A stretch of DNA of 64,000 nucleotides from Candidatus Amesbacteria bacterium GW2011_GWB1_47_19 (GCA_001002325.1 LCNZ01000002.1:7093-71092); one strand, 5' to 3'; positions 1 to 58,313 are shown, counted from the first letter of the stretch. Notes: generated by a model from the sequence alone, not told the origin. Numbers and translations: made by a program.

Positions 1-423
1 ACCGATCATTCCCGCCACAGTCAACGCTTCAGGCAGATGAAACTGGGACAAATACCACAGCCATGGGTTGGTTGTGGCTATCCATACCGGCCACCAACTC
101 CTTACGGCTTCGCCTCGGCTCAATCGGTATATTCCCCATACCAAACCAACCTGAATCAGCCAACCCAGGATCCTCAGCTGCATCTCTCCGGTACCAAACG
201 ATTTAAACCAGACCGCCTCCACAGCCAGCGGTACCACAAATAAGCGGTAGCCGTTATCCCGGAGTACCATTTCCAGAGACGGACTGTCGGTTTTTCCCAA
301 TGAGTACGCTGCGTAGCCAAATTCGGCCTGTTCGACGCTCATCCCGATAGGATTCTTCAAGGCCAAAGCCAGATTCAGAAGTAGTATCAGGGCAACCCCG
401 GTTATTTCAATTTTTTTCTTCAT
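1..423 (-). CDS. N-terminal 141 aa of a membrane protein that runs off the 5' edge; divergent PMT_2/GT39-like paralog
   Basis: Reverse-complement of 1-423 is an open frame starting ATG at 423 (MKKKIEITGVALILLLNLALALKNPIGMSVEQAEFGYAAYSLGKT...), not in the supplied ORF track because it is edge-truncated. It has a TM helix then ..P.G....EQAEFGYAAYSL, matching the P.G...DEAALGYNAYSL loop-1 motif of the four downstream paralogs but with DE changed to EQ. Confidence 0.5.
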   Translation of the reverse strand, partial: MKKKIEITGVALILLLNLALALKNPIGMSVEQAEFGYAAYSLGKTDSPSLEMVLRDNGYRLFVVPLAVEAVWFKSFGTGEMQLRILGWLIQVGLVWGIYRLSRGEAVRSWWPVWIATTNPWLWYLSQFHLPEALTVAGMIG

Positions 424-449
424 GCTCCTGAATATAATATAATGAATTT

Positions 450-2051
450 GTGAAAACCGCGGTTTTGACGGGAATATTGCTCCTGGGACTGATTTTACGG
501 ACCGTTTGGTTGGATAAATATCCTCCGGGGCTGACTCCGGACGAGGCGGCATTTGGTTACAATGCCTACTCCGTCCTCCAAACCGGCAGTGACGAATGGG
601 GTACCCCCTGGTATAGGTTGGCTTTTACCAACCTCAGGTCCTTTGGTGATTATAAACTGCCTATGTATGTTTTTTTGGCCTTGTTCCCGGTCAAGATATT
701 CGGATTAAGCGAATTTGCCGTTCGATTGCCGAATGCTTTGATCGGTACCTTAGCCGTTGCCGCTGTCTATCTTCTGGGGAGTAAACTCTTTTCTGCAAAA
801 ACCGCCCTCTGGGCAGCATTTTTATTAGCTGTCTCCCCCTGGCATATCCAGCTGTCCCGTGGTGCCTTCGAAGCCAATCTGGTCACTTTTTTTCTCCCGC
901 TGGGGATATATCTGTTTCTGACCGGATCCGCTGTCTGGTCGGCGCTGGTACTGGGCCTTAATTTTTATTCATATCATTCTGCCCGGCTGCTGACCCCTTT
1001 GATTGTGATAATTCTTTTGATGTTTAAACTACCGGGGAAAATTAATCGCTTAATTTTCATAGCCGCCCTTTTTATCGTGACCGTCCCCGGCCTTGTGTCA
1101 ATGACTTCCGGAAGCATAGCCCGCGTTTCCGATATTGGCATAACCGGCCCTACCGATAATTGGCGATCTGTTGCCGACAGACGTTTTACCGCCCGCCAAT
1201 CCGGCCTACCGGATGGACTGGCCCGGCTGATATCCAACAAAGTCCAAACAGTGACTTCGCTTTATATACATAATTATCTGACGTATTTTTCTGGACAATT
1301 CCTGTTTACATCCGGTGCGAGTGAAGGGACTTATGGCATGCTACCGGGTAGGGGAGTACTTTATATAATTGAATTACCATTGTTGCTATATTTCCTGGTA
1401 CTACTTATTCGCAAACCGTCCCCGCAAATGTATTTGCTACTGTTGCTGCTTCTTATCTCCCCTATACCCGCCGCTCTGACAAAGGGACCGGGTTATGCCG
1501 CCAACCGGGCAGTTGTAATGCTTCCGTTTTTAATTCTCGCCATCTCATTCGGACTAACTCACCTTATAAAAAACAAACTCCTTACACTAATTACAATAAC
1601 TGTTTACTCCCTTTGTCTTCTCTTTTTCCTGGCTAATTATCTCTATCTCTCTCCCTCTCAAATTGCCCCGGCCATGCTTTATGGACGCCGGGAGGCACTG
1701 ACGAGAGTCGCCTCAATATCAGGTGGATTGGAGGAAGTACGAATCAGCCGATCCTTGTCAGAACCGCACATTTATCTGGCATTTTTCTCTCGTTTCTCGC
1801 CGGCGGAATATCAAATGTATTCTCGGAACTGGCCGGACCCGACGACTTTGGGTCTGAAATTTCTGGATCAGGTGGACGGGTACTCTTTAGATAAATATCG
1901 TTTCGGGAACCTGAATTTTGAGGCTCCGGTAGACCATTCGGTTCTTTATGTCGGCTTACCTTCAGACTTTCCCCCGGACTACCCCGGACTTTTCCGTATT
2001 GATTATCCGGACGGTCGCCCGGCGGTGACCGTAGCCGCAAAAAATCCATGA
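450..2051 (+). CDS. PMT_2/ArnT-like GT-C membrane glycosyltransferase (GT39/GT83 type), paralog 1
   Basis: GTG start. N-terminal TM, then LDKYPPGLTPDEAAFGYNAYSVLQTGSDEWG...FGDYKLP...GLSEFAVRLP, the diagnostic DE loop of protein-O-mannosyltransferase/ArnT family; about 11 predicted TM segments; C-terminal soluble domain. Confidence 0.8.
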   Translation: MKTAVLTGILLLGLILRTVWLDKYPPGLTPDEAAFGYNAYSVLQTGSDEWGTPWYRLAFTNLRSFGDYKLPMYVFLALFPVKIFGLSEFAVRLPNALIGTLAVAAVYLLGSKLFSAKTALWAAFLLAVSPWHIQLSRGAFEANLVTFFLPLGIYLFLTGSAVWSALVLGLNFYSYHSARLLTPLIVIILLMFKLPGKINRLIFIAALFIVTVPGLVSMTSGSIARVSDIGITGPTDNWRSVADRRFTARQSGLPDGLARLISNKVQTVTSLYIHNYLTYFSGQFLFTSGASEGTYGMLPGRGVLYIIELPLLLYFLVLLIRKPSPQMYLLLLLLLISPIPAALTKGPGYAANRAVVMLPFLILAISFGLTHLIKNKLLTLITITVYSLCLLFFLANYLYLSPSQIAPAMLYGRREALTRVASISGGLEEVRISRSLSEPHIYLAFFSRFSPAEYQMYSRNWPDPTTLGLKFLDQVDGYSLDKYRFGNLNFEAPVDHSVLYVGLPSDFPPDYPGLFRIDYPDGRPAVTVAAKNP

Positions 2052-3688
2052 AATATTTTCTCTTAATCTTACTACTTTGTCTCCCTGCGTTCGTGCAGAT
2101 GCTGAGGTTTGGTTTATATACTACCCACGACTTTCATTTCTTCCGTCAGTACGAATTTGATAAGTGTATATCCGATCATGTTTTCCCCTGCCGCTGGTCA
2201 GCGAATGCCGGTATGGGTTACGGAGAGCCGGTTTTCAATTTTTACGGCCAACTGCCTTATGTTTTCGGCCAGATATTCAAATATTTAGGTTTTTCAGTGA
2301 TTGATTCGGTAAAAACGGTTTTCATTCTCTCGCTGGTTCTTTCTTCTGTATTCATGTATCTGCTGTCCCGGCGGTTCTGGGGTCATTTGGGGGGTCTGAT
2401 ATCGGCTTTATTTTATGTTTTTGCTCCCTACCGGGCAATAGATGTCTGGGTTCGCGGTGCTCTGCCGGAAAGTCTGGCATTTGTGTTTTTCCCCCTCATC
2501 CTTCTGTCTCTGGAAAAGTATTTACATCGTCCCCGCCTATTACCGCTTTTAGAGTTCTCGTTATCCTGGGCGGGTTTAGTACTGGTCCACAATCTGTCCG
2601 CCTTTATGTTTTTTCCTTTTGTGATTATCTGGTGGCTATGGCGATCCCGGCAGTCGCGGGGTATCATGTCGGGAATTCCGCTTCTGGCCGCCTTCATCTT
2701 TTCGCTCTTTCTTTCGGCTTTTTACCTGCTCCCGGTCATATTTGAAAGCCGCTTAACGACTGTCAACGACACCACCCGGATTTATTACGAGTACGGTTTG
2801 CACTTTACTTCTTTAAAACAGTTGTTCGTTTCCCGTTTCTGGGGCTATGGCGGGTCAGTTTGGGGACTGAATGATACTATGAGCTTTTCCGCCGGCCACC
2901 TTCACTGGATACTTGCAGTCATTATCGGTTTATATTTGCTCATGAAACGTCAAATCAAATCACCATTAACTAATAACTATTTACTGTTCACCGGTCTCGG
3001 TATCTTCGCCCTTTTTTTAACTCACGGCAAATCCGATTTCATCTGGCGCCTGGTTCCTTATATCCGTTTCGTCCAGTTTCCCTGGCGATTTTTAACCATC
3101 ACTGCCCTTTTCCTCGCCCTTGCCAGCGGGAGTATCGCCCGCATCCTTCCCAATAAATTTATCCCCTATATACTACTACTGTTACTGTTGACCAATTTTA
3201 TGTTCTTCCGTCCGGATATCTGGCGTCCGATTTCTGATTCAGTCCAATTTTCCGGTGTTTTGTGGGACGAGCAGCGAGCCTCATCTCTCCAGGATTACTG
3301 GCCGAAATCGGCTCCGCTGAAGCCTCGGGAATTTGCCCCCTCTCTGCCGGAGTTCACAACGGGGCAGGGTCAGGTGGCAGTATTTCATAAATCTTCCCAC
3401 TCAGCTCAGGCGCAGATTACCGTTTCTTCCCCCCGGGCGGAAGTCCTTTTTCCCATTGTCTATTTTCCGGGATGGACAGCCCAAATTTCCGGCCGCAGGT
3501 TTCGGGTCATACCCTCGGGAGATTTAGGCAGGATTACCGTTCTTTTACCTGCCGGTAGTTACCTGGTACAGCTGAGGTTTACCGATACCCCCGTTCGGCG
3601 TATCGGCAATTTAGTAAGTCTGGTCTCCGGAATATTATTGCTGTCCGCCTTGCTGATTATCAAAAAACCGTCTTATGCAAAAAGTTAA
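2048..3688 (+). CDS. Polytopic membrane protein with C-terminal beta-rich extracytoplasmic domain (GT-C-like; YfhO/PTPS-related-like, family uncertain)
   Basis: ATGA overlap with the upstream gene. Many hydrophobic helices; N-terminal loop YTTHDFHFFRQYEF...AGMGYGEPVFNFYGQLPY; C-terminal about 120 aa hydrophilic domain followed by a final TM. No WWDYG OST motif. Confidence 0.55.
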   Translation: MKYFLLILLLCLPAFVQMLRFGLYTTHDFHFFRQYEFDKCISDHVFPCRWSANAGMGYGEPVFNFYGQLPYVFGQIFKYLGFSVIDSVKTVFILSLVLSSVFMYLLSRRFWGHLGGLISALFYVFAPYRAIDVWVRGALPESLAFVFFPLILLSLEKYLHRPRLLPLLEFSLSWAGLVLVHNLSAFMFFPFVIIWWLWRSRQSRGIMSGIPLLAAFIFSLFLSAFYLLPVIFESRLTTVNDTTRIYYEYGLHFTSLKQLFVSRFWGYGGSVWGLNDTMSFSAGHLHWILAVIIGLYLLMKRQIKSPLTNNYLLFTGLGIFALFLTHGKSDFIWRLVPYIRFVQFPWRFLTITALFLALASGSIARILPNKFIPYILLLLLLTNFMFFRPDIWRPISDSVQFSGVLWDEQRASSLQDYWPKSAPLKPREFAPSLPEFTTGQGQVAVFHKSSHSAQAQITVSSPRAEVLFPIVYFPGWTAQISGRRFRVIPSGDLGRITVLLPAGSYLVQLRFTDTPVRRIGNLVSLVSGILLLSALLIIKKPSYAKS

Positions 3689-5279
3689 AAATTGGCCATA
3701 TCTGCTTCTGTTATTGGTCATTTCCGGTCTTTTTTTACGCCTGGTCAGGCTTCCGGATTTCCCGCCCGGTCTTAATTGGGACGAAGCCAGTCTGGGATAT
3801 TCCGCCTATTCACTGTTAAAAACCGGTCATGACGAATGGGGATCTGCATCCCCTTTAATTTTTCGCGCTTTCGGGGATTACAAACTCCCCAGCTACATCT
3901 ACCTGGATGTTGTCCCCGTCGCATTTTTGGGATTAAATCCGTCGGGAGTGAGATTGCCGTCGGTTCTGGCAGGTACCTGCTTGATTCTCATGTCTTTCCT
4001 GTTGGCTCGGCAAATTTTTAAAGACGATCGGATAGCCTTGCTGACGGCACTGCTGGTGGCCATCGAACCGTGGTCGCTGTTTCTTTCCCGGGTGGGCCTT
4101 GAAGCCAATCTGGCAGCATTTCTTATTTGTGCCGGGATTGTTTTTCTGTTGCGGCACAAAATCACACCTGGCCTGTTGTTTTTGGGTTTATCTGTCTGGA
4201 CATACAACAGCGCCCGTCTCTTCACCCCTCTGTTTCTGTTGGCATACTGGGTCATCCGCCGTCCCAAACTATCAACGGTAAACTATTTACTATTAACTGT
4301 ATTTTTCGTACCCATGCTTCTTCAGCTTTTTTCCCCGTCCGGCCAAGCCCGGTACAAATGGGTGTCCTTAATCGACCAGGGGGCAATCAACCGCATCAAT
4401 GAACTTCGTCTGAATTCGGATTTGCCCGAGACCCTTTCCCGAATTTTCTTTAATAAAGTATCCTATTCACTATTCACTTTTACTGTTAATTACCTAAAAC
4501 ATTTCTCCCCGGATTTTCTCTTTTTTTCCGGCGGTAGCAACTACCAGTTTAATATCCCCGGATATGGGTTACTTTCGTTAATAAACCTCCCCTTCTTTTA
4601 TCTGGGCCTCCTGCACTTACCCGGATTTCACGATCGTAAAAATCGCGTCATTTTTCCCCTCTTAGCCTGGCTATTCCTGGCTCCCATTCCCGCCAGTTTG
4701 ACTCGGGACGCTCCTCATACCCTGCGGGCTATTACCCTGCTGCCTTTACCAATGCTTATATCGGCTTTCGGTGCAGTTAAGATTTGGGATAGATTAAAAA
4801 CTCATTTGCCGAATTATTTTCCCATTGTCTGGCTTGTCTGTTTAATCCTAAGTCTGGAATACTACACGACTACTGTCACTCCGGCTTACCGTACTGCTTA
4901 TTCCTGGTCCTGGCAATACGGCTATCGGGACATTGTTGCATATGTCAGAAACCATTATTCCGAATACGACCGGGTCATAGTTAGCAAAAGATATGGAGAA
5001 CCGCATATCTTTTTCCTGTTTTATTGGCCCTGGGACCCGGTTGCCTACCGGACAGATCCTGATCTGATCCGATATTTTAAGAGCGATTGGTATTGGGTGG
5101 ATAGTTTTGCCAAATTCAGGTTCGTCAACGATTGGGATTTGGTGGAATACGTAAGTCAGCCCCATCCAGGTCAAAAGTATTTAACCGTTTCCTCGCCGGA
5201 CAACGCCGCCCCCGGTACACCCCTCGGTCAAATTAATTTCCTCGACGGTCAGCCGGCTTTCATAATTAAAGAAAACTGA
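3675..5279 (+). CDS. PMT_2/ArnT-like GT-C glycosyltransferase, paralog 2
   Basis: LPDFPPGLNWDEASLGYSAYSLLKTGHDEWG...FGDYKLP motif; same architecture as 450-2051; overlaps the upstream gene by 14 bp. Confidence 0.8.
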   Translation: MQKVKNWPYLLLLLVISGLFLRLVRLPDFPPGLNWDEASLGYSAYSLLKTGHDEWGSASPLIFRAFGDYKLPSYIYLDVVPVAFLGLNPSGVRLPSVLAGTCLILMSFLLARQIFKDDRIALLTALLVAIEPWSLFLSRVGLEANLAAFLICAGIVFLLRHKITPGLLFLGLSVWTYNSARLFTPLFLLAYWVIRRPKLSTVNYLLLTVFFVPMLLQLFSPSGQARYKWVSLIDQGAINRINELRLNSDLPETLSRIFFNKVSYSLFTFTVNYLKHFSPDFLFFSGGSNYQFNIPGYGLLSLINLPFFYLGLLHLPGFHDRKNRVIFPLLAWLFLAPIPASLTRDAPHTLRAITLLPLPMLISAFGAVKIWDRLKTHLPNYFPIVWLVCLILSLEYYTTTVTPAYRTAYSWSWQYGYRDIVAYVRNHYSEYDRVIVSKRYGEPHIFFLFYWPWDPVAYRTDPDLIRYFKSDWYWVDSFAKFRFVNDWDLVEYVSQPHPGQKYLTVSSPDNAAPGTPLGQINFLDGQPAFIIKEN

Positions 5280-5280
5280 A

Positions 5281-6918
5281 ATGGGTAGAAAAATATTATT
5301 AATTTCGGTTCTTATTCTTGGACTTGGCCTCAGGCTGATTCGGCTGGATAACCGTCCGGCAGGATTCACTTGGGACGAAGCGGCCTTGGGTTACAACGCT
5401 TATTCGCTTTTATTCACCGGCAAGGACGAACACGCGGCATTAATGCCCCTGGTTTTTAAATCCTTCGGTGATTACAAACCCGGTTTATATATTTATTTCT
5501 CAGTTCCCGCGGTAGCCATCTTTGGCCTTAACGAATTTGCCACCCGTCTGCCCTCCGCTATCTTCGGCACCCTGCTTGTCCTCGTTGTTTATTTGATAAG
5601 TAAAGAATTAGAAAGTTTATTGAAAATTGAAAATTGTAAATTGAAAATTGCACCAGCAGCAGCCTTGCTGATGGCGGTAAACCCCTGGGCTATCCACTTC
5701 TCCCGCGGGGCCTGGGAAGCCAACCTTGCGCTGTTTCTTACCACTTTGGGTGTCACGTTTTTTATCCGGGGAATCAAAAATAATTCTCATTTCCCCTATC
5801 TCATTTCTGCTTTCTTCCTCGGTCTGACACTCTGGTCCTACCAGGGGGCCAAACTTTTCACTCCGCTGCTACTTTTATCCCTGATCGTCGTTTACCGGCC
5901 TGTTATTAGTATAAAAAAAATGCTCTTACCATTGGGACTATTTCTTGTATTACTATTTCCGATTCTGGCAGGATTCGGAAACCAATCCGGCCGACTCAAA
6001 GTCTTCAGCGTATTTTCCTATACCCGCACCCGGGAATATGTATCCCAAATACTTACCCAGGATCAAACAACCCGTCCCGGGTGGGCTTATTACCTGTATC
6101 ACACTGAACTGCTGGATCAGTTACGCGGCATCGCCCAAAGATATCTTAACCATCTGTCACCCCGATTTTTGTTCGTGGACGGCGACTGGTCTTCGCTTCG
6201 CCACTCCACTCCCTACCAGGGATATCTTTTTTACCCCCAACTATTAATTCTTTTGATGGGTTTATACCTGCTGATAAAAAACTTTTCCCATCCATTGTCA
6301 AAGTTTGTCATCATATGGTTGTTTTTGGCACCGGTCCCGGCCGCCCTTTCCCGGGATATTGTTTCCGGCGTCAGATCTCTGCCTTTGATCATTCCCTTAA
6401 CAATCATTTCCGGCATCGGCTTAGCCAAAATTTCCCGTTATTCAACTCTGTTACTCTGTTTCTCTGTAACTCTGTTACTTTTCTTTATCTATTTCCTGGA
6501 TCTCTATTTCATCCATTCGCCTCAGTTTACCGCCCGGGACTGGCTATACCCTTATCGCCCTGCATTTTCGCTCATCAGGCCCTATCTCTCATCATACCGC
6601 CGCATTTATTTCACCGATCAACTCGGCCAGCCCTATATTTTCTATCTTTTTTACAACCAGGTATCCCCCGCATACTACCAGTCCCAAAATGCCTTCATCC
6701 CCAATCCCTCAGGAGACGTCGGTCGGGTCGACCGGGTTGATAATCTGGTATTTGCCCCGGTTTACTGGCCTTCTTTGCGTTACGAAAGTTCTGCGTTGTT
6801 CATCGGAGGCCAGTATGAATTACCTGAATCAGACCTAAACCAGCCCGGCCTGGAGCGGATTGCCGAGATTACTTACCCCAACGGAGATCCGGCACTCAGG
6901 ATTGTCGGTATACCATGA
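5281..6918 (+). CDS. PMT_2/ArnT-like GT-C glycosyltransferase, paralog 3
   Basis: LDNRPAGFTWDEAALGYNAYSLLFTGKDEH...FGDYKP motif; carries an in-frame AT-rich heptamer repeat insert (ESLLKIENCKLKIA) in the loop after TM3. Confidence 0.8.
   Translation: MGRKILLISVLILGLGLRLIRLDNRPAGFTWDEAALGYNAYSLLFTGKDEHAALMPLVFKSFGDYKPGLYIYFSVPAVAIFGLNEFATRLPSAIFGTLLVLVVYLISKELESLLKIENCKLKIAPAAALLMAVNPWAIHFSRGAWEANLALFLTTLGVTFFIRGIKNNSHFPYLISAFFLGLTLWSYQGAKLFTPLLLLSLIVVYRPVISIKKMLLPLGLFLVLLFPILAGFGNQSGRLKVFSVFSYTRTREYVSQILTQDQTTRPGWAYYLYHTELLDQLRGIAQRYLNHLSPRFLFVDGDWSSLRHSTPYQGYLFYPQLLILLMGLYLLIKNFSHPLSKFVIIWLFLAPVPAALSRDIVSGVRSLPLIIPLTIISGIGLAKISRYSTLLLCFSVTLLLFFIYFLDLYFIHSPQFTARDWLYPYRPAFSLIRPYLSSYRRIYFTDQLGQPYIFYLFYNQVSPAYYQSQNAFIPNPSGDVGRVDRVDNLVFAPVYWPSLRYESSALFIGGQYELPESDLNQPGLERIAEITYPNGDPALRIVGIP
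5620..5650. repeat. In-frame AT-rich heptamer tandem repeat (TTGAAAA/GAAAATT, about 4.4 copies) inside PMT_2 paralog 3
   Basis: ttgaaaattgaaaattgtaaattgaaaattg read directly; encodes LKIENCKLKI, which is absent from paralogs 1 and 2. Confidence 0.8.
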
Positions 6919-8570
6919 AACGATACTTGCTTATCCTGATTTTGTTATTGGCTGCTGTTTTACGTCTGACAGCCTTGTCCCGCTATCCGGTCGGATTCAA
7001 TGCCGACGAAGCCGCCTTGGGATACAACGCCTATTCTCTATTAACCACCGGTAGGGATGAGCATGGCCACCTCTGGCCAATAAACCTCGAATCGTTTGGT
7101 GATTTCAAACCTGCCCTCTATGCGTATCTTTTAATCCCGTTCATCAAAGTATTCGGTTTGAGTGAATTTGCCGTCCGTCTCCCATCCGCCCTGGCCGGGA
7201 TATTTTCAGTTTGGCTGATATATCTGTTAACTAAGGAGTTATTTACCTCTCCCTCGTCTCCCCCTCCTGAATCAGGAGGGGGATGGGGGGTGGTACAGAA
7301 GATACCGGTTATTGCAGCATTTATGCTGGCGATATCGCCGTGGCATCTTCATTTTTCCCGGGGAGCCTGGGAAGTCAACCTGGCCACCACCTTCATTTTG
7401 TCCGGAGTTTATTTTTTTATTCTATATCAGAAAAATCACAAATTTTTGAATTTTGAATTTTGTGTTTTGAGTTTTGCTCTGTCCATGTACACCTACCAGT
7501 CTACCCGCATTATTGCTCCGCTCTTGGGTCTGGGCTTGGCTTTGATGTATTTCAAATCTCTGATCCGGTATCCCAAACAGTTGCTTCTGGCTTTTCTCAC
7601 CCTGGTTTTTATACTTTCCCCCTTAATGCTGTCTATTATCCGTTCTGATGCTTCCTCCCGCTTATCCGGCGTCGGCCTTCTGGCAGATGACGGGCCCGTG
7701 AACCGCGTAAACCAGCTACGCGGTCAGCATTCAGCCTTAAATTCACTTTTATCCCGTGAGCTGCACAACCGTCCCGTTATCTACACTATTCAATTTATGA
7801 AAAATTATCTAGACCATTTCAACGGGGATTTTCTGTTTATAACCGGCGACCTGATACCCCGTAATCGTATTCCGGAAACAGGACTTCTGTATCTGACCGA
7901 TTTTCTACTTCTGGTTTTGGGAGTTTTTTATCTCTTCCGCCGGTCCAGACCACACACCCGCATCATTTGGTTGTGGCTGGCTGTCGCCCCGGTGGCTTCC
8001 GCTCTGACTTTTCAGACCCCCCACGCTCTCCGGGCCCAAAATCTGGTCATCCCGCTAACTATAATTTCCACCGCTGGAATTTATTTCATAATTTCTAAAG
8101 CACGTTACTCAAAAGCCCTGTTACTCTTACTATTTACTATTTACACATTTCAATTCACCCGTTACCTCCACCAGTATTATATCCACTATCCCCAAACTTA
8201 TCCTTATGCCTGGGAATACGGTTTTAAAGAACTTGTAAGCTATGTGGAATCGGTTAAGGACGGGTATGATCAGATCCTGGTTACCGACAAATACGATCAG
8301 CCCTACATCCTTTTTCTGTGGTATTCCCGTTACCCTCCAGCCAGATTTCAGGGTACACATCAACTGACTATTCGTGATAAGTTTAACTTTTCCACCGTCA
8401 GGGCTTATGACAAATACAAATTTACGGATACTTCCTGGGACAAAGTTCGGGATATCCACGGCACCCTTATCGTTGCCGCTCCGGATGACATTCCGGAAGT
8501 CGGGGTGCATGTGGTAAAAACTATTTATTTCCCCGGCGGTTCACCAGCATTTAAAATTGTTTCAAATTAA
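6915..8570 (+). CDS. PMT_2/ArnT-like GT-C glycosyltransferase, paralog 4
   Basis: LSRYPVGFNADEAALGYNAYSLLTTGRDEHG...FGDFKP motif; ATGA overlap with the upstream gene; in-frame insert SPSSPPPESGGGWGVV at the same loop as paralog 3. Confidence 0.8.
   Translation: MKRYLLILILLLAAVLRLTALSRYPVGFNADEAALGYNAYSLLTTGRDEHGHLWPINLESFGDFKPALYAYLLIPFIKVFGLSEFAVRLPSALAGIFSVWLIYLLTKELFTSPSSPPPESGGGWGVVQKIPVIAAFMLAISPWHLHFSRGAWEVNLATTFILSGVYFFILYQKNHKFLNFEFCVLSFALSMYTYQSTRIIAPLLGLGLALMYFKSLIRYPKQLLLAFLTLVFILSPLMLSIIRSDASSRLSGVGLLADDGPVNRVNQLRGQHSALNSLLSRELHNRPVIYTIQFMKNYLDHFNGDFLFITGDLIPRNRIPETGLLYLTDFLLLVLGVFYLFRRSRPHTRIIWLWLAVAPVASALTFQTPHALRAQNLVIPLTIISTAGIYFIISKARYSKALLLLLFTIYTFQFTRYLHQYYIHYPQTYPYAWEYGFKELVSYVESVKDGYDQILVTDKYDQPYILFLWYSRYPPARFQGTHQLTIRDKFNFSTVRAYDKYKFTDTSWDKVRDIHGTLIVAAPDDIPEVGVHVVKTIYFPGGSPAFKIVSN
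7259..7283. repeat. Perfect 10-bp GC-rich hairpin (tccccctcct GAATC aggaggggga) inside the paralog-4-specific insert
   Basis: Inverted repeat read directly; lies in the codons for PPPESGGG, a segment absent from paralogs 1 and 2. Confidence 0.8.
7443..7476. repeat. In-frame heptamer tandem repeat (TTTTGAA-like, about 4.5 copies) inside PMT_2 paralog 4
   Basis: tttttgaattttgaattttgtgttttgagttttg read directly. Confidence 0.8.
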
Positions 8571-8571
8571 T

Positions 8572-8991
8572 ATGAATCTAGTTGAATTAGCCAAAGTGAT
8601 ATTTACTGGCGATAAAGGGACTATAATTATTCAGGATCGTACAGGACATAGCAAGATAGGGGAAAAATTGGGATTCTTTGGTGGTGGTATTAAACAGGAT
8701 GAAACTCCGGAACAGGCACTCCGTCGCGAATTACTCGAAGAATTAAGATATTCCCCTGAAATATTAAATTTCTTCATTAAGCAAAATACTATCTGCAAAA
8801 TTACCGGGAAATTTTACGGTTGGAAAGTCATTGAGCATATATTTTTATCTCCCATAACTCCAGAACTATTGGGATCACCATGTCTTGAAGGAGGAGGTAT
8901 TAAAGAATTATTACTTGCAGATGCACTCAAACTTCCGGATTTTTGGGAAGGGGACCATAAAATCTTAGAAATTTTGTATGAAAAAGATTAA
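8572..8991 (+). CDS. Nudix hydrolase (possibly NDP-sugar hydrolase)
   Basis: Nudix box G-x5-E-x7-REuxEEx: GGGIKQDETPEQALRRELLEELRY. The track ORF starts at a TTG at 8557; the in-frame ATG at 8572 (MNLVELAK) is preferred. Confidence 0.7.
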   Translation: MNLVELAKVIFTGDKGTIIIQDRTGHSKIGEKLGFFGGGIKQDETPEQALRRELLEELRYSPEILNFFIKQNTICKITGKFYGWKVIEHIFLSPITPELLGSPCLEGGGIKELLLADALKLPDFWEGDHKILEILYEKD

Positions 8992-9778
8992 ACTTTCCGT
9001 CGTCCTGGCTGTTTATAACGAGGAGGCAAATCTTGCCCGGTGCCTGGAATCCGTAAAAGACATCGCCGGAGAGATAGTTATTGTTGACGGGGGCTCAACG
9101 GATAAAACCGTGGAAATAGCCAAACGGTTCAAAGCCAAAATTATCCGGACAGACAATCCTCCCAACTTCCACATCAACAAAAACAAAGCCATCGATGCTG
9201 CGGCAGGGGAGTGGATTTTGCAGTTGGACGCCGACGAAGTCGTTTCTCCTGAATTATCCCGGGAAATAAAATCTATAACCTATAACCTAAAACCTAATCA
9301 CTATGCAGGATACTGGCTAAATCGCAAAAACTGGTTTCTGGATCGCTTTCTGACCAAAGGCGGCCAGTACCCTGATCCCACCCTGCGCCTGTACCGGCGG
9401 GGTATGGGTCGTCTTCCTGCCATAGATGTCCATGAGCAGGCCCGGGTTAATGGTCCTACCAGTCATCTCAAATCCGACCTGCTGCATTACCGGGATACCG
9501 ATTTTGCCAGATATCTTTCGGGCTTTAACCTCTATACCACTTTTATAGCAGAACAACTCAGACAGCAGGAAATACATTTTAATTTGTCAAACGTATTTCT
9601 CTATCTCTGTTTCAAACCTCTGTCGACTTTCTTAAAGATTTATTTCAGGCACCGGGGATACGTTGACGGTTTCCCGGGGCTTGTCTTTGCTCTATATTCC
9701 GGCCTGGTCCATCCGGTTTCCTTTATTAAATTCTGGCAAAAAACCTTTTATCCGGACCAGTATTCGAAAAAATTATGA
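8978..9778 (+). CDS. GT2-family glycosyltransferase (WaaE/KdtX-like, soluble about 260 aa type)
   Basis: LSVVLAVYNEEANL...IVIVDGGSTDKTVEIA...QLDADE (DxD); typical GT-A N-terminal half. Confidence 0.8.
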   Translation: MKKIKLSVVLAVYNEEANLARCLESVKDIAGEIVIVDGGSTDKTVEIAKRFKAKIIRTDNPPNFHINKNKAIDAAAGEWILQLDADEVVSPELSREIKSITYNLKPNHYAGYWLNRKNWFLDRFLTKGGQYPDPTLRLYRRGMGRLPAIDVHEQARVNGPTSHLKSDLLHYRDTDFARYLSGFNLYTTFIAEQLRQQEIHFNLSNVFLYLCFKPLSTFLKIYFRHRGYVDGFPGLVFALYSGLVHPVSFIKFWQKTFYPDQYSKKL

Positions 9779-10845
9779 TCCGTATCGGTTTCATCACCCC
9801 ATCTTCATCTTCAGGACACCCCGCCCGGGGAATCGGATTTTATTCTCGCCAGTTGTTATCAGCTCTCAAACTCCGGGCAGGAACGTACGGGATGCAAGTC
9901 GAATCCGTAGAAAATTTCGATAATGTCATCGGCAGATACAATCTGATTCATCAGCCTTATTTTGATCTCTTTTCCCCCTCCCTGCCTCTGGTTCCCCCTG
10001 TCAAAACCATTGTCACCATCCATGACGTCATTCCGCTGGAATACCCCTTACATTATCCTCCCGGTATCAAAGGGCGGTTAGGATTGGTTTGGGAAAAAAC
10101 CGCCATCCGGTCGGTATCTCGGATTATTACCGATTCCTATGCTTCGGTAAAAGCCCTGGTTAAATATCTGCACCTTCCCCATGCCAAAATAAAACTGGTT
10201 TATCTGGCTCCCGGCGACCAATTCCGACGTATTACGGATAAAATCCGTTTGTCGTCTGTCCGCAATAAGTACCATCTACCCCGAAAATTTGTACTTTTTA
10301 TGGGAGATATCAATTGGAATAAAAATCTCCCCGGATTGGTAGAAACCTGCCTCAATCTAAAAATCCCCCTTGTGGTGATAGGTAAAAGTGCCGCCGAAAT
10401 TGAAAAATTGAATTTATCCCACAAAGAGCTTTCTCATCTCTCACCTCTCATTTCTCACCTCTCAGATCCCAACTTGATCCGTCTGGGATTTGTTCCCGAT
10501 GAGGATCTGGCGGCGATATTCAGTCTGGCCGGAATTTACTGCCAACCTTCGTTTGCCGAAGGCTTCGGTTTGCCGGTTGTCCAGGCCATGGCCTGTGGCA
10601 CACCGGTGGTCTGCAGCCGGACCCATTCCTTACCTGAATTTGCAGGTGAAGCTGCTGTCTATTTTGACCCTTTTTCAGTCCCGGATATGACTCAAAAAAT
10701 CAAATCCGTGATGACCGATTCTGGTTTACGAAAGACGCTATCCGAAGCCGGAATAATACAATCATCCCGTTTTACCTGGGAGCAAAGTGCCGACCACACC
10801 TTGCAAGTTTACCGGGAGGTAATAAAATCAGGTTTGTTGCCATGA
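9775..10845 (+). CDS. GT4-family (GT-B) glycosyltransferase
   Basis: C-terminal EGFGLPVVQAMACGTPVVCS motif of group-1 glycosyltransferases; contains internal short tandem repeats (EIEKLNLSHKELSHLSPLISHLS). Confidence 0.8.
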   Translation: MIRIGFITPSSSSGHPARGIGFYSRQLLSALKLRAGTYGMQVESVENFDNVIGRYNLIHQPYFDLFSPSLPLVPPVKTIVTIHDVIPLEYPLHYPPGIKGRLGLVWEKTAIRSVSRIITDSYASVKALVKYLHLPHAKIKLVYLAPGDQFRRITDKIRLSSVRNKYHLPRKFVLFMGDINWNKNLPGLVETCLNLKIPLVVIGKSAAEIEKLNLSHKELSHLSPLISHLSDPNLIRLGFVPDEDLAAIFSLAGIYCQPSFAEGFGLPVVQAMACGTPVVCSRTHSLPEFAGEAAVYFDPFSVPDMTQKIKSVMTDSGLRKTLSEAGIIQSSRFTWEQSADHTLQVYREVIKSGLLP

Positions 10846-11993
10846 ATTTTGCCCGAATAGTCAGGTTATTCGTCGCCTGGCAGTTGCTGATTGTTATCAT
10901 CACCGCCGCATCGTTTAGTTGGTTGCCCCTGCGTGCTACTTTTATCGGCGGTTCCGACCAAGCCAGTCTGGCAAACCCCCAGCCATATATCCGGAATCCT
11001 CTGCTATACTCACGGGCAAATTTTGACGGTATCCACTATGTGGACATCGCCCGTAAAGGTTATGGTTATGCCCAACAGGCGTTTTTCCCCCTATACCCCA
11101 AACTTATAACTCTGCTTTCACCTTACGTCCACCCACCCGCGTTAGCCGGAATTTTGGTCTCTCTGGCTGGTTTCCTAGCAGGTTTGGTCTTTCTTTCCCG
11201 ACTCATGACCCTGGACCATCGTCCTAAAATTGTTTTTTGGACTATTTTGGCTCTGCTGGTTTTCCCAACCAGTTTCTTTTTCGGGTCGGTCTATACCGAA
11301 GGCCTGTTCTTCTTTTTTAGCGTCAGTGCCTTTTATTTTGCCCGTTCCCGGCGCTGGTGGGTTGCCGGTATTATAGGATTATTGGCTTCGTATACACGTT
11401 TTATTGGGGTCTTCTTATTGCCTGCCCTGCTCATAGAATGGTGGACGGCCTACTCCGGTTCCGAAAAGGGTCCCAAACCAGCAATCGCCGACCTCATGAT
11501 CCTGTTTTTTATTCCCGTGGGACTGGTAATTTTTATGCACTATTTAATCCACACCACCGGTGATCCTCTGGCCTTTTTGCATGTTCAGAAACTTTTCGGA
11601 CAGGGCAGGAGCGACGAAATAATCCTGATCTATCAGGTGTTCTGGCGTTATCTGAAAATGATTTTTACGGTCAACCGGGCGGATCCGTTGTATCTGACTA
11701 TCTGGCTGGAACTAATCACCGGTATTCTTGGTACTGTATCTTCAGTTATTTTATTTTTCCGTTCCCGTCCGTCGTACGCTTTCTTTAATCTGGCTTCATT
11801 TCTCACCCCCACTCTCTCCGGCACTTTCACTTCAGTCCCCCGCTATTTGTTATTGTGTTTCCCTAGCTTCATTCTTTTAGGCGAATGGTTGGGAAAGACC
11901 GACACAGTATGGCGTCGGTCATATCTGTTCTTCAGCTTAATTCTATTGGTGTTATTTACATCCCTCTTCGTTCGGGGTTACTGGGTCTCTTGA
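10842..11993 (+). CDS. GT-C membrane glycosyltransferase, PIG-V/GPI-mannosyltransferase-2-like
   Basis: Multi-TM; FDGIHYVDIARKGYGYAQQAFFPLYP resembles the conserved luminal-loop motif of Mannosyl_trans2 family proteins. Family assignment from memory, not searched. Confidence 0.55.
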   Translation: MNFARIVRLFVAWQLLIVIITAASFSWLPLRATFIGGSDQASLANPQPYIRNPLLYSRANFDGIHYVDIARKGYGYAQQAFFPLYPKLITLLSPYVHPPALAGILVSLAGFLAGLVFLSRLMTLDHRPKIVFWTILALLVFPTSFFFGSVYTEGLFFFFSVSAFYFARSRRWWVAGIIGLLASYTRFIGVFLLPALLIEWWTAYSGSEKGPKPAIADLMILFFIPVGLVIFMHYLIHTTGDPLAFLHVQKLFGQGRSDEIILIYQVFWRYLKMIFTVNRADPLYLTIWLELITGILGTVSSVILFFRSRPSYAFFNLASFLTPTLSGTFTSVPRYLLLCFPSFILLGEWLGKTDTVWRRSYLFFSLILLVLFTSLFVRGYWVS

Positions 11994-12017
11994 TGGTATT
12001 TACATGTATTATAAACT

Positions 12018-12899
12018 ATGTCTATGACTAAAAACCCTTGCGAAAACATCATTATTGGAGGAAATGGATTTATAGGAACATACATCACAGAACTATTAAC
12101 AAAATCGGGTAACAGTTCGAGGATTATAGATTCCCATGCTCATGCGGATTCACAAGCAGAACAGGTCGCTATTACTATCGGACCTGAATGTAACGATCAG
12201 GAATTAAAAAGCGCAATAGCCGGGAAAAGAATATTCATTCTCGTAGGTCAGATAAAACCTGATTTTAATGAAGATTATGAACTAGCCGCATTAAAGAAAC
12301 TATTCAGTTGCGTCGACTTCAAAATGACCAGACAAATTATCTACACATCTTCAGCCTTAATATACGGGGACACCAAAAAACCTGCAGTGGAAACAGACCC
12401 CATCAATCCGGTCGATTCATATAGTAGATTTAAATCAAAAAGTGAGGATTTATGTAAAATGTATTTTAATCAAAAAACCGGAATCAATTTGCTTATAACC
12501 AGATTAAGTAATGTCTATGGGGGTGTTAAAAACAGGGGATTTATCGGTTTAATAATAAATAAATCCAAGAATGAGATTAAGCCAACAATAGATATTAACG
12601 GAGATGGTAAACAAACCAGAGACTATATTCATGTAATTGATGTCGCAAACGCTATTTTATCAATTGCCGGAAACGAAGTGAATGACATTGTAAATGTGAG
12701 CTTCGGGATTAGCTGGTCACTCCTCGAAATAATTGATAAGTTTAATAATTTATCACCGAATAATATTCATACAAATATAAAAGGCAATTTATTAAATGAA
12801 GTGAAACAGAGCCGGATTTCCAATCAAAAATTGAGAGATATTTACGGATACACTCCTGCAATATCCCTGGATAGGGGGCTCGAGCTTAGTTTGCTTTAG
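12018..12899 (+). CDS. NAD-dependent epimerase/dehydratase (extended SDR)
   Basis: IIIGGNGFIGTYI Rossmann motif; YSRFK (YxxxK) catalytic dyad; first gene of the AT-rich block. Confidence 0.75.
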   Translation: MSMTKNPCENIIIGGNGFIGTYITELLTKSGNSSRIIDSHAHADSQAEQVAITIGPECNDQELKSAIAGKRIFILVGQIKPDFNEDYELAALKKLFSCVDFKMTRQIIYTSSALIYGDTKKPAVETDPINPVDSYSRFKSKSEDLCKMYFNQKTGINLLITRLSNVYGGVKNRGFIGLIINKSKNEIKPTIDINGDGKQTRDYIHVIDVANAILSIAGNEVNDIVNVSFGISWSLLEIIDKFNNLSPNNIHTNIKGNLLNEVKQSRISNQKLRDIYGYTPAISLDRGLELSLL

Positions 12900-12904: not shown

Positions 12905-14326
12905 ATGATGAGAGACAAAATAAAAAAAGTAATAATCGTCGGTTGCGGTGCAGCAGGCCGTCTTTTATTACACGATATAGTACAAAATCATAAAACTATT
13001 TCATGTCTGGGTTATGTGGATGATCTGAAAAAAAGCAATAGTGTTCGTATTTTAGGTCCGATCAGGAATCTGGTTGAATTAGTGGAGAATTACCGGGTTG
13101 ATGAAATCTTAATAGCGGTACCTTCAAGTAATGGCAAACTGGTAAGGCGTGTTTTGCTGCAATTAATTTCAACTCGAATTCCTATAAAAATTGTTCCCAG
13201 AACCCAGATGGTTATTAAGACTGGTCTGGTCAGATATGCAGATTTAAGAGAGGCTGAGGCGCAGGACTTTTTGGGTCGTCCGTTTATTAAACATAATATT
13301 GAAAAACTTTCCGCCTGGTACAAGGATAAAGTGGTGCTTATAACCGGTGGAGCAGGTTCTATCGGTTCTGAAATAGTCAGACAGTTGATGGAGTTAGGTA
13401 CAAAAAAAGTTATAGTATACGACTTTTCTGAATATCTGATGTTTAATCTGGATCAGATGTTAAAAGACGTAGGAATGCGAGACAAGTGCGAATTGATCAT
13501 AGGAAACATTTTAAATGCAAATAAAGTATCCCAGATCTTTAAAAAAGATAAGCCCAATATTGTAATTCATGCAGCAGCATATAAACATGTCTATTTAATG
13601 GAAGACAATTTGGATGAGGCGATAATAAACAACATTCAGGGTACTAAAACAATCACGGATCTGGTAATTCAGAATCAAATTTCTAATTTTGTATTTATTT
13701 CGACAGACAAAGTAGTTAATGCCTCCAGCATCATGGGAGCTACCAAGAACTTATGCGAGCTTTATATCAGACATTCATACCACGGTCAAAAAAAGCTGAT
13801 ATTTAATATTGTTAGGTTTGGAAACGTGATAAATTCAAATGGATCAGTTTTACCGCTCTTCGAAAAGCAGATAAAGGAAAGGAGCGAAATCACTGTAACT
13901 GATAGAAAAGTAAAAAGGTTTTTTATGTCAACTAGAGAAGCTTCACAGCTGGTGATAGAAAGCACTGCTTGGGGGATAAAAAATTCAATACATGTTTTAG
14001 ATATGGGTGAATTATTAAGCATTTATGAAATTGCCTTATGCACTATCAGAAGCAGAAACCTAATTCCGGAGGTAGATGTCAAAATTAAGTTTATCGGTCT
14101 TCGGAAGGGAGAGAAAATGATCGAGGAGCTGTATACTAACCGGGAAAGAGGTAATTTAATTGACACAAAAATACCGCGTGTATTTGGGTTAGAGAAACTG
14201 GTGCTTCACAACAACAAAATCATTGCACTGGAAGAAGAACTGATAAATTTAGCCAGGAAATGCAACATTAAAGGAATAAAGCGAATATTGAATGAAGAAT
14301 TTCCCACACTTTCAAAGGCCCACTAG
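12905..14326 (+). CDS. Polysaccharide biosynthesis protein CapD/PglF/WbpM-like UDP-sugar 4,6-dehydratase (soluble form)
   Basis: N-terminal CoA-binding-like domain (KKVIIVGCGAAG...ILIAVPS), then VLITGGAGSIGSEI and HAAAYKHVYLMEDNLDEAIINNIQGT, characteristic of CapD/FlaA1/PglF. Confidence 0.8.
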   Translation: MMRDKIKKVIIVGCGAAGRLLLHDIVQNHKTISCLGYVDDLKKSNSVRILGPIRNLVELVENYRVDEILIAVPSSNGKLVRRVLLQLISTRIPIKIVPRTQMVIKTGLVRYADLREAEAQDFLGRPFIKHNIEKLSAWYKDKVVLITGGAGSIGSEIVRQLMELGTKKVIVYDFSEYLMFNLDQMLKDVGMRDKCELIIGNILNANKVSQIFKKDKPNIVIHAAAYKHVYLMEDNLDEAIINNIQGTKTITDLVIQNQISNFVFISTDKVVNASSIMGATKNLCELYIRHSYHGQKKLIFNIVRFGNVINSNGSVLPLFEKQIKERSEITVTDRKVKRFFMSTREASQLVIESTAWGIKNSIHVLDMGELLSIYEIALCTIRSRNLIPEVDVKIKFIGLRKGEKMIEELYTNRERGNLIDTKIPRVFGLEKLVLHNNKIIALEEELINLARKCNIKGIKRILNEEFPTLSKAH

Positions 14327-21320: not shown

Positions 21321-21519
21321 ATCATTTGAAAGAAAATTAATGGATAGGTTTGACTTTGAAATCGATGGTGGATCTACTTTGATAATTCCCGATGACACAA
21401 GTTTCGTAGGTTTGATGTTTGCACGAATAATTGCAAATAGATTTATGGTAGATTTTGTTGAAAAAAAGAACGGAACAAGGCTGAGTTTTAATGGTTGGAA
21501 AATATGGCACAGGGGATAA
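21304..21519 (+). CDS. Small hypothetical protein (71 aa)
   Basis: Fills the gap between flanking genes with short overlaps; no recognisable motif. Confidence 0.3.
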   Translation: MTKENKSFERKLMDRFDFEIDGGSTLIIPDDTSFVGLMFARIIANRFMVDFVEKKNGTRLSFNGWKIWHRG

Positions 21520-22112
21520 ATAAATCTCCTGCTTTTATTATTGATAGGGATGGGGTTATTAACCGAATGGTGAATTATTCGGGTCAGTGGGATTCACCCC
21601 AAAAACCCAAAGATGTCCGGTTGGTCGATGGTATAGTAGACATTTTGCACTGGTTAAATGAGAGACATATTCCGATAATCGAAATTTCCAACCAGCCTGG
21701 GATAGCCAAGGGTAAAATGACACAAGAAACCTCAGACGCAATTGAAAACAGGGTCCACCAGCTGTTGGCATCCCGGGGTGTCAGAATTGATAAAACATAC
21801 ATTTGCCCCCATCATCCCAAGGGTGTAGTGCCGGAATTGACACGTGAGTGCGATTGCCGTAAACCCAAAGCGGGCTTATTTATTAAAGCGGCTAAAGATT
21901 TAGGTATAAACTTCTCAGAAAGTGTAATGCTTGGCGATAAAGCCTCTGATATTCAAGCGGGAGATGCTGTGGGCTGTAAAACCGTACTGTATCTTCACAA
22001 TGAAGACCAACCGGAAAAAATCGAACAGACCAAAAGGGCCCGTGCTGACCATCAAGTCACCCGAGTTCAAGAAGTACTTGAAATATTACCTAAAATTTTT
22101 AAATTAGTTTAA
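21495..22112 (+). CDS. gmhB: HAD-IIIA D,D-heptose 1,7-bisphosphate phosphatase (GmhB-like)
   Basis: FIIDRDGVINR, CPHHP...CDCRKPKAGLF, MLGDKASDIQAG: the GmhB/HisB-N signature including the Zn-binding Cys/His cluster. Confidence 0.8.
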   Translation: MENMAQGINKSPAFIIDRDGVINRMVNYSGQWDSPQKPKDVRLVDGIVDILHWLNERHIPIIEISNQPGIAKGKMTQETSDAIENRVHQLLASRGVRIDKTYICPHHPKGVVPELTRECDCRKPKAGLFIKAAKDLGINFSESVMLGDKASDIQAGDAVGCKTVLYLHNEDQPEKIEQTKRARADHQVTRVQEVLEILPKIFKLV

Positions 22113-23461: not shown

Positions 23462-23481
23462 AAAGAAGTATCCCTATAATA

Positions 23482-26185: not shown

Positions 26186-26187
26186 TT

Positions 26188-58309: not shown

Positions 58310-58313
58310 CCTT

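Follow-up and report, generated by a model that had tools for sequence, protein, structure and literature searches.

A conserved operon of GT-C glycosyltransferase paralogs in Candidatus Amesbacteria and its predicted role in envelope glycan assembly

Introduction

Bacteria of the candidate phyla radiation (CPR) have genomes of about 1 Mb and miss many biosynthetic pathways. A stretch of 64,000 nucleotides from Candidatus Amesbacteria bacterium GW2011_GWB1_47_19, a groundwater organism (GCA_001002325.1, LCNZ01000002.1:7093-71092; hereafter "the window"), has close to its start a run of five genes for polytopic membrane proteins, four of which (A, B, C and D) are paralogs and the fifth of which (X) lies between A and B. 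The question raised by this locus is why so small a genome devotes about 8 kb to five consecutive glycosyltransferases (GT) of the GT-C type, and more than 64 kb to surface-glycan genes. A reading made from the sequence alone (the sequence-only reading) had presented A–D as a tandem expansion of a protein O-mannosyltransferase (PMT)-type enzyme with diversified acceptor or donor specificity. We propose, with a probability of roughly 0.6, that A–D and X are non-redundant extracytoplasmic glycosyltransferases that use lipid-phosphate-sugar donors for a conserved envelope glycan or lipoglycan.

The kind of enzyme and its logic are known; what is new is the fixed-order operon of multiple GT-C genes, conserved across the small-genome Microgenomates. 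None of the curated family models in NCBIfam captures A–D. A full-text literature search that combined CPR, Patescibacteria or Microgenomates with PMT_2 or GT-C, and outside which most subscription journals fell, found no paper on such arrays.

Organization of the array

The paralogs A (450-2051; 533 amino acids, GTG start), B (3675-5279; 534 amino acids), C (5281-6918; 545 amino acids) and D (6915-8570; 551 amino acids) are all encoded on the plus strand. In an all-against-all BLASTP of the open reading frames (ORFs) of the window they were 31.5–34.3% identical to each other over about 530–545 aligned residues, that is, over nearly their full length, with E-values of 1e-54 to 1e-81. All four exceed the Pfam gathering score for PMT_2 or PMT. 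PMT_2 was above gathering in A (37.6 bits), C (27.9 bits) and D (31.5 bits); PMT (PF02366, cut-off 22.7) was matched by A (29.4 bits) and B (30.7 bits), and C and D had no PMT match at E ≤ 0.01. Gene X (2048-3688, plus strand) encodes 546 amino acids.

The junctions, as read from the sequence, are an ATGA overlap for A/X, a 14-nt overlap for X/B, a 1-nt spacer for B/C and again an ATGA overlap for C/D. The tight spacing runs on through a NUDIX, a GT2, a GT4 and a PIG-V-like gene, making nine genes from 450 to 11993 with a largest gap of 1 nt. Because of the ATGA and other overlaps and of gaps that never exceed 1 nt, 450-11993 is one translationally coupled operon. Coordinates, BLASTP, Pfam and junctions all agree with the four tandem, translationally coupled paralogs of the sequence-only reading. 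A promoter and terminator scan of 1-12600 stayed at the level of shuffled sequence (19 versus 19.6 and 17 versus 16.1) and was uninformative about the limits of the operon; a tRNA scan found none.

Protein C is present as a residue-for-residue copy on contig MEXT01000002.1 of GCA_001773795.1 and on a 276-kb ENA scaffold from that project. Its closest named relatives are from Candidatus Amesbacteria and Microgenomates metagenome-assembled genomes (MAGs), and its orthologs are 48–59% identical. Some A–D-type proteins already carry the database labels "glycosyltransferase family 39" (GT39) or "ArnT-like".

Orthology and synteny of A–D

Relatives of the array were collected by scanning one genome per GTDB species, which yielded 277 relatives. 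Synteny and trees were taken from the best 80 loci, whose ORFs were classified by hidden Markov models and best match, and a neighbor-joining tree was built from 265 sequences. Among these 80 loci, the titles that name a lineage are those of Microgenomates (Amesbacteria, Woesebacteria, Shapirobacteria, Daviesbacteria and Microgenomatus). Nearly every locus has 4–7 family members on the same strand. The order A-(X)-B-C-D holds in all 80, and the recurring arrangement continues as A-(X)-B-C-D-GT2-GT4-PIG-V-like GT-C. The genes found 3' of D in most of the loci are GT2a, GT4a, the PIG-V-like GT-C and a DPM1- or GacI-like GT2. X is missing from many loci, including most of the Woesebacteria-titled ones, and is present in two copies in some lineages. 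In the tree the paralogs fall into clades (A 55/55, B 76/77, C 54/54, D 72/79), and the exceptions are extra upstream copies in other loci; such upstream copies differ between genomes.

Compared with the locus of another Amesbacteria genome (L001), the positional orthologs are 53% (A), 53% (X), 42% (B), 57% (C) and 64% (D) identical, and those of the upstream genes up2 and up1 47% and 31%. Thus, orthologs of A–D are 42–64% identical, versus about 31–34% for the paralogs. The expansion is old, because positional orthologs are far closer than paralogs and because the order is kept across Microgenomates lineages; the data indicate an old, conserved operon in which A, B, C and D represent four separate orthogroups. 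The tandem expansion that had been noticed from the sequence is therefore a paralog array, as described, but it is neither recent nor specific to this lineage: the synteny comparison in related genomes that had been suggested showed the order A-(X)-B-C-D to be kept across four lineages (Amesbacteria, Woesebacteria, Shapirobacteria and Daviesbacteria). A recent tandem duplication or gene conversion was ruled out on the same identity values.

The record title "uncultured Gammaproteobacteria bacterium" is given to many of the species-representative MAGs with the operon (among them those of loci L010, L015-L017, L022, L024 and L025). Their gene content and the 40–57% identity to Amesbacteria or Woesebacteria proteins indicate that they are mislabelled Patescibacteria.

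Fold, acidic motif and variable regions

The AlphaFold2 model of C, made from a 42-sequence alignment, had a mean confidence (pLDDT) of 91.7 and a predicted template-modelling score (pTM) of 0.91. In it, transmembrane helix 1 (TM1, residues 2-19) is followed by a first loop that includes a short helix (31-46) and a beta-hairpin (58-67); then come the helical bundle, a less confident loop at about 231-300 and a C-terminal soluble alpha/beta domain (about 436-545). Hydropathy analysis gave 9–12 hydrophobic segments in each of A–D and X. In each of A–D the polytopic GT-C core is combined with a small soluble domain at the C-terminus, and the loop that follows TM1 carries an invariant Asp-Glu pair.

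In a Foldseek search of the PDB with this model, all 26 matches at E ≤ 1e-3 were GT-C enzymes (STT3, AglB, ArnT, PglB, ALG9 and Pmt4), and Emb chains followed at E-values of 0.003–0.13. Everything at a probability of ≥ 0.98 was either GT-C (including EmbA/B/C) or a GT-C-like subunit of the glycosylphosphatidylinositol (GPI) transamidase, whereas unrelated transporters did not exceed 0.06. The best whole-chain TM-score (0.54/0.55) was that to ArnT (5ezm), over the full length; ArnT and STT3 together span 0.46–0.54. The family profile reached a single PDB sequence, again ArnT (5EZM, E 8e-4). When the GT-C genes were compared with NCBIfam (E ≤ 1) none reached a cut-off; TIGR03663 (Agl23) came closest with 24–51 bits versus a cut-off of 126, and was not adopted as their family, and the rest were trace matches. 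Neither PMT_4TMC nor MIR was matched in any copy at E ≤ 0.01 (Pfam). We place A–D in the GT-C superfamily, in the PMT_2 sense, because of the GT-C matches in Foldseek, the sub-threshold NCBIfam scores and the undetected PMT_4TMC and MIR domains; we do not assign them to the GT39 protein O-mannosyltransferases or to the ArnT orthologs.

Across the 265 sequences, 31 positions (numbered as in C) carry the same residue at ≥ 85% conservation in all four orthogroups. They include D32, E33, G37, Y38, A40, Y41, S42, T46, G47, D49, D64, R89, R142, R238 and R365 and, in the C-terminal domain, P451, F457, P463 and F491. The conserved N-terminal motif sits within the stretch that aligns with the Pfam PMT and PMT_2 profiles and corresponds, by sequence, to the acidic first-loop motif of GT-C enzymes with its neighbouring residues. 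The N-terminal pattern that had been noticed in the four genes is specific to the family and is not a signal anchor. From the N-terminal K/R residues and from the family, the first loop with the D-E pair is predicted to face the outside.

Identity between the paralogs of the window is 38–46% for residues 1-230, 23–32% for 231-435 and 23–31% for 436-545. Most of the residues that are conserved in one orthogroup only belong either to the loop around 239-300 or to the C-terminal domain; examples are L239, Y247, R249, G283, R287 and N290 in C, G287, Y290 and Q291 in B, and Y295, G296 and M297 in A. The central outside loop is at least as discriminating between the orthogroups as the C-terminal domain. 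The latter had been suggested as the variable part of the proteins; it is indeed more diverged (23–31% versus 38–46%), but it is homologous to the last residues, with P451, F457, P463 and F491 universal. The clustering of group-specific residues in loop and C-terminal domain makes the postulated diversification of specificity very probable.

Gene X

X had been described as an unrelated membrane protein that interrupts the paralogs. At the level of sequence this holds: a profile-profile comparison (hhalign) of the A–D family with the X family gave a probability of 4.6%, i.e. no link. It does not hold for the fold. The AlphaFold2 model of X (39 homologs, pLDDT 89.4) is a helical bundle with a C-terminal beta-sandwich and a last TM helix. 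In Foldseek all its PDB matches at a probability of ≥ 0.77 were GT-C enzymes (STT3, EmbA/B, AftA, AftB, AftD, ArnT, PglB, ALG9/12 and Pmt4), as were all matches at E ≤ 0.02; below these came weak, low-probability rows to unrelated folds. An invariant D28 follows TM1.

X itself had no Pfam match at normal thresholds. PF10131 (PTPS_related) was matched below its gathering score (13 versus 26.4 bits, E = 0.035, aligned along 318 residues), and many of the listed orthologs of X (44–64% identical) carry a precomputed PF10131 match, some also YfhO, DUF6541 or PMT_2. We know of no PF10131 member with a demonstrated activity. From its model, X is thus a predicted GT-C-fold glycosyltransferase of the PF10131 lineage, related to A–D by fold alone. 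The run comprises five GT-C genes at the fold level, because the confident model of X significantly matches GT-C enzymes only.

Downstream partners and donor supply

The coupled run continues beyond D with four genes on the plus strand. The first, coupled to both D and GT2a, encodes a 139-residue NUDIX hydrolase (8572-8991; Pfam NUDIX, 44 bits). A counterpart is missing from the Amesbacteria locus L001, and none of the proteins in the best 80 related loci has it as best match. The protein may hydrolyse a nucleotide sugar, by analogy with the GDP-mannose mannosyl hydrolases of other glycan clusters. GT2a (8978-9778; 266 amino acids; Glycos_transf_2, 84.9 bits) is a GT2 glycosyltransferase located just 3' of D in nearly all sufficiently long related loci, with a flavin adenine dinucleotide (FAD)-dependent oxidoreductase occasionally in between; its best PDB sequence matches, GmaR and SunS, cover the N-terminal part only. 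GT4a (9775-10845; 356 amino acids; Glycos_transf_1, 83 bits) is a cytoplasmic GT4 enzyme of GT-B fold and a conserved downstream partner. Its NCBIfam matches, among them MshA and GT4 enzymes that glycosylate lipids, were all sub-threshold. The last gene of the run, also a conserved partner, encodes the PIG-V-like GT-C (10842-11993; 383 amino acids; precomputed Pfam Mannosyl_trans2, PF04188) and is 51% identical to its L001 ortholog.

Candidates for the synthesis of lipid-linked donors are found elsewhere in the window. A DPM1/ArnC/GtrB-like GT2 (58960-59697, minus strand; 245 amino acids) is a candidate polyprenyl-phosphate-sugar synthase: in the PDB it matched the Pyrococcus dolichyl-phosphate-mannose synthase (5mlz, E 5e-21, residues 3-212), ArnC (about 1e-15) and GtrB (4e-10), and in NCBIfam AglJ, ArnC, PgfS and PpgS, all sub-threshold. 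In most related loci its homolog comes after the PIG-V-like gene. A 434-residue GT2 (17283-18587, plus strand) has a C-terminal half that resembles polyprenyl-phosphate-sugar synthases; it is 28% identical to 58960-59697 over 228 residues, and its best NCBIfam matches are AglJ, ArnC and PgfS (sub-threshold). A third GT2 (50284-50958; 224 amino acids) and a small DUF2304 membrane protein next to it (49946-50290), both on the minus strand, form a GacI/GacJ- or PpgS/Rv3632-like pair; PpgS is the best NCBIfam match of the former (84 bits, sub-threshold). For 58960-59697, 50284-50958 and the C-terminal half of 17283-18587 the best NCBIfam matches also include a dolichyl-phosphate hexose transferase, again below the cut-off. 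Two proteins of the DUF2304 family, GacJ and Rv3632, are stimulators of the undecaprenyl-phosphate (Und-P)-GlcNAc synthase GacI and the polyprenyl-phosphate-GalNAc synthase PpgS, respectively (10.1101/180810). In the Gac system the Wzx protein GacK is the proposed Und-P-GlcNAc flippase (10.1101/180810).

Three Wzx-like (Polysacc_synt) genes are present in the window, and no GtrA-family flippase was seen among its Pfam matches. Two of the Wzx-like genes (53697-54971 and 56214-57479, plus strand; precomputed Polysacc_synt) flank the FAD-dependent oxidoreductase (54956-56230, plus strand; precomputed DAO). The oxidoreductase scores 421 bits against the NCBIfam model PRK07233 ("hypothetical protein", cut-off 252), and its FAD-binding end distantly resembles phytoene desaturases and UDP-galactopyranose mutase. 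Several other loci, some of them from Woesebacteria, have this gene directly between D and GT2a. Speculatively, the enzyme could act on the polyprenol carrier or on a lipid-linked sugar and modify it. The rest of the window contains nucleoside diphosphate (NDP)-sugar enzymes, GT2 and GT4 transferases and methyltransferases.

Proposed function and alternatives

In the proposed mechanism, each enzyme would work on the outside of the membrane, where it would attach a single sugar from a polyprenyl-phosphate-sugar donor at a specific position of an envelope glycoconjugate, either finished or still growing. Cytoplasmic synthesis of the donors would fall to the DPM1/ArnC/GtrB/PpgS-like GT2 enzymes encoded in the window, and the Wzx-like proteins would then flip these donors across the membrane. 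The paralogs would catalyse different steps, differing in acceptor position, linkage or sugar, in the making of a single conserved envelope glycan or lipoglycan. The combination of synthase, flippase and GT-C enzyme follows a general scheme (PMC11127046). The use of polyprenyl-(pyro)phosphate-linked donors is suggested by context, namely the GT2 and Wzx-like genes in the window and the conserved synteny. A–D most likely catalyse distinct, non-redundant steps, because they form separate orthogroups in a fixed order and have group-specific residues in the outside loop and the C-terminal domain.

Several points weigh against this proposal. The TM-scores to solved GT-C enzymes are modest (0.4–0.54, the best about 0.54), and the NCBIfam matches of the GT-C and GT2 proteins are all under the curated cut-offs. 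No initiating phosphoglycosyl transferase was seen among the genes of the window, which leaves the primer of the supposed glycan without a candidate. The biochemical role of A–D and X is predicted from sequence, model and gene context; the donor sugar, the acceptor and the acceptor class (polysaccharide, lipoglycan or protein) are suggested by context only. That the enzymes act in sequence, and not in parallel on different acceptors, is a proposal, and a hetero-oligomeric complex would likewise be compatible with their tight coupling and strict co-occurrence.

The main rival is that A–D are PMT/GT39-type protein O-glycosyltransferases, transferring mannose or another hexose from a polyprenyl-phosphate-sugar to Ser/Thr of secreted, S-layer or pilus proteins, with paralogs that differ in protein substrate or form obligate heteromers like yeast Pmt1-Pmt2. 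A and B do score above the PMT gathering threshold, the D-E first-loop motif is common to PMTs, Pmt4 and Pmt1/2 structures are among the Foldseek matches, and translational coupling with strict co-occurrence fits complexes of equal stoichiometry. Streptococcal PgfS, which works with GT-C partners in protein glycosylation, is also among the sub-threshold NCBIfam matches of the GT2 synthases. Yet the PMT_4TMC and MIR domains were not found and C and D fall short of the PMT model, and the PMT structures align over about 260-290 columns only, at a TM-score of about 0.3, compared with 0.46–0.54 for the full-length alignments to ArnT and STT3. Moreover, the conserved partners (GT2, GT4 and the PIG-V-like GT-C) build glycans and none of them points to proteins. 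We consider protein O-glycosylation unlikely, and the label "protein-O-mannosyltransferase-type" or GT39 given in the sequence-only reading is not retained: there is no PMT_4TMC or MIR, no NCBIfam equivalog match, and the best TM-score (0.54) is to ArnT.

A still less probable alternative holds that the paralogs are interchangeable or variable, Gtr-like serotype converters, which would add optional side-chain sugars to a surface polysaccharide and be maintained as a source of surface variation in the face of phages or hosts. Glucosylation of a single backbone at several positions by Gtr-type GT-C enzymes is the classical example of GT-C diversification (PMC11127046). The very large glycan locus with its compositionally distinct, apparently variable 40-kb block and the extra upstream copies that vary among genomes are also in line with it. 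Against it, A, B, C and D are separate orthogroups in a fixed order in the best 80 loci, and their divergence is ancient (paralogs about 31–34% identical), which does not suggest recent duplication or gene conversion. Fixed-order conservation together with ancient divergence thus indicates core, non-optional functions of A–D. Finally, the shared N-terminal pattern might be a generic signal-anchor or low-complexity membrane pattern in unrelated genes, a possibility that the sequence-only reading had itself raised and that nothing but the general hydrophobicity of the proteins favors. The full-length alignments at E 1e-54 to 1e-81, the four Pfam matches above gathering, the charged or polar nature of conserved residues (D32, E33, D49, D64, R89 and R142) and a fold that matches GT-C enzymes make its probability negligible.

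A wider and more tentative idea is that the Microgenomates share a lineage-wide, conserved envelope lipoglycan or heteropolysaccharide, for whose extracytoplasmic assembly six or more GT-C enzymes (A, X, B, C, D and the PIG-V-like protein) would act in a fixed series, with DPM1-like synthases as suppliers; we regard this extension as possible rather than probable. If true, the locus would be an independent bacterial counterpart of the assembly of lipomannan, lipoarabinomannan (LAM) and arabinogalactan in mycobacteria or of the ALG/GPI mannosyltransferase series in the lumen of the endoplasmic reticulum (ER). The degenerate copy on the opposite strand could then serve as a non-catalytic scaffold, and the polymer would be a candidate determinant of host attachment and phage recognition. 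The conservation of the operon points to an undescribed envelope glycoconjugate, which may be central to surface building and to the host and phage encounters of these episymbiont-like cells. The locus provides a defined gene set for heterologous reconstitution (A, X, B, C, D, GT2a, GT4a, the PIG-V-like and the DPM1-like gene), and four natural paralog groups with mapped group-specific residues that can be used to study acceptor choice in GT-C enzymes.

Comparison with known systems

ArnT (GT83; 5EZM/5F15), the undecaprenyl-phosphate-4-amino-4-deoxy-L-arabinose (L-Ara4N):lipid A transferase, shares with A–D the polytopic GT-C core, the C-terminal soluble domain and PMT_2. A–D differ from it in that no NCBIfam ArnT model was matched at E ≤ 1, the structure-based identity is about 12–13%, and four or more paralogs plus other GT-C families occur in one operon, whereas the arn operon has a single enzyme. 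Apart from ArnC-like GT2 enzymes, no arn-type genes (the arn context being ArnA, B, C, D, E and F) were found in the window or its flanks; to our knowledge the CPR bacterium has no lipid A. With the GT39 PMTs (yeast Pmt1/2/4 and actinobacterial Pmt) the proteins have in common that a D-E motif is present in the first loop on the luminal or extracytoplasmic side. Yeast PMT paralogs work as heteromers. The absence of PMT_4TMC and MIR, the partial structural overlap and the glycan-building gene context set A–D apart from PMTs.

The mycobacterial embC-embA-embB, AftA-D, MptA/B/C and PimE also represent several GT-C paralogs, some of them in tandem, and catalyse distinct extracytoplasmic steps of one envelope polymer from polyprenyl-phosphate-sugars. 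Emb, AftA, AftB and AftD are among the Foldseek matches of C or X, and the window has the PpgS/Rv3632-like pair of a synthase and a DUF2304 protein. In contrast to the mycobacterial enzymes, A–D and X are half the size, lack the lectin-like carbohydrate-binding module of Emb and have no detectable sequence orthology to them; in addition, five to seven GT-C genes are combined in one coupled operon in a CPR genome of roughly the 1-Mb class. By analogy, the closest parallels would be Emb/Aft/Mpt/PimE (arabinogalactan and LAM) and the ER-lumen ALG/GPI mannosyltransferases.

As in three-component systems (GtrA/GtrB/Gtr*, GacI/J/K/L, CsbB/GtcA/YfhO; GT136), candidates for synthase, flippase and GT-C enzyme are all present in the window (PMC11127046; 10.1101/180810). 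As a rule, such systems pair each donor with a single GT-C enzyme and attach a side chain that is optional, whereas the array has four or five conserved core GT-C enzymes, and their conserved co-occurrence points to backbone assembly or an obligatory decoration. In contrast to Gtr systems, only Wzx-like flippase genes are present, GtrA-family genes not being seen. X resembles PF10131/YfhO-type GT-C membrane proteins in the Pfam matches of its orthologs and in its GT-C fold, but differs from PF10131 members in that it stays itself under the gathering score.

Other GT-C genes in and near the window

The window starts within a gene on the minus strand, up1 (1-423), which comprises the N-terminal 141 codons of a 529-residue degenerate family member (full form at 3554-5143 of L004). 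A divergent copy on the opposite strand had been reported from the sequence; up1 is that copy, but its match to the family profile is weak (42 bits) and the motif is lost. It reads VEQAEFGY where A–D have DEAAxGY, and neither up1 nor any of its detected orthologs retains the D-E pair and the acidic motifs that come after it (VEQ, VLQ, VEL, VEM, IDE, etc.). The orthologs are only 23–34% identical to one another, reflecting an evolution much faster than that of A–D. Because the acidic first-loop motif is lost, up1 is probably non-catalytic, a pseudo-enzyme kept beside the array in some genomes. The start codons of up1 (ATG at 423, minus strand, preceded by AGGAG) and A (GTG at 450) are divergent and 26 bp apart (424-449). 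TATAAT is located about 12 nt 5' of the GTG of A, and a Shine-Dalgarno sequence is not visible there; the transcript of A may be leaderless or begin within up1.

The gene at 61444-62832 (plus strand, 462 amino acids), which had been listed as a further family member, is a PMT_2 protein (28.5 bits) that retains WLDEAS, but it is a distant one, about 28–32% identical to A–D across 107-150 residues only. It is coupled to GT2b (60707-61477, plus strand), a paralog of GT2a (27% identity). In addition to the copies listed earlier, GT-C genes are present at 14312-15793 (minus strand, 493 amino acids, PMT_2 37.8 bits, within a low-GC block and with no BLASTP link to A–D among the window ORFs at E ≤ 1e-3) and at 52729-53700 (plus strand, a short PMT_2-like protein of 323 amino acids, 29.6 bits), besides the PIG-V-like gene (Mannosyl_trans2) and a further PMT_2 gene (Pfam) just 5' of the window (L004 2013-3575, minus strand). 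The peripheral copies (up1, up2 and those at 14312, 52729 and 61444) look variable, unlike A–D.

The low-GC block and surrounding glycan genes

A block of about 40 kb (12000-52000) has a GC content of about 0.32–0.40, versus 0.44–0.49 in the flanks (1-12000 and 52000-64000); the drop starts right past the stop codon of the PIG-V-like gene at 11993. The block looks like a variable or acquired island of glycan genes inserted in the conserved cluster, because the genes that flank it (PIG-V-like, DPM1-like GT2 and FAD oxidoreductase) adjoin the array in most related genomes. Within the block, 21504-27447 encodes, according to Pfam, a HAD phosphatase, a transaldolase (TAL_FSA), a SIS isomerase, GFO_IDH_MocA, a GHMP kinase, an NTP_transferase and an epimerase, a set that presumably resembles a nucleotide-sugar pathway of the GDP-glycero-manno-heptose type.

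Three large proteins have no Pfam family match (15806-17290; 41181-43190, minus strand; and 62829-64000 and beyond). The first has about 15 hydrophobic segments and the last comes after the PMT_2 gene at 61444-62832; the three may be additional glycan polymerases or GT-C-like enzymes. Just beyond the right end of the window, after GT4 and hexapeptide-transferase genes, lies a gene for a Wzy_C-family protein (L009 21178-21266; 435 amino acids; O-antigen ligase/polymerase/O-oligosaccharyltransferase type), and therefore en-bloc transfer of a lipid-linked glycan may also occur in the locus.

A second SIS gene (51038-51643) is 35% identical to the one at 22820-23461. The 238-residue protein encoded at 29482-30198 (minus strand) is 45% identical to the N-terminal 220 or so residues of a 522-residue protein encoded 4 kb away (34355-35923), the C-terminal part of which has a weak match to APH (phosphotransferase).

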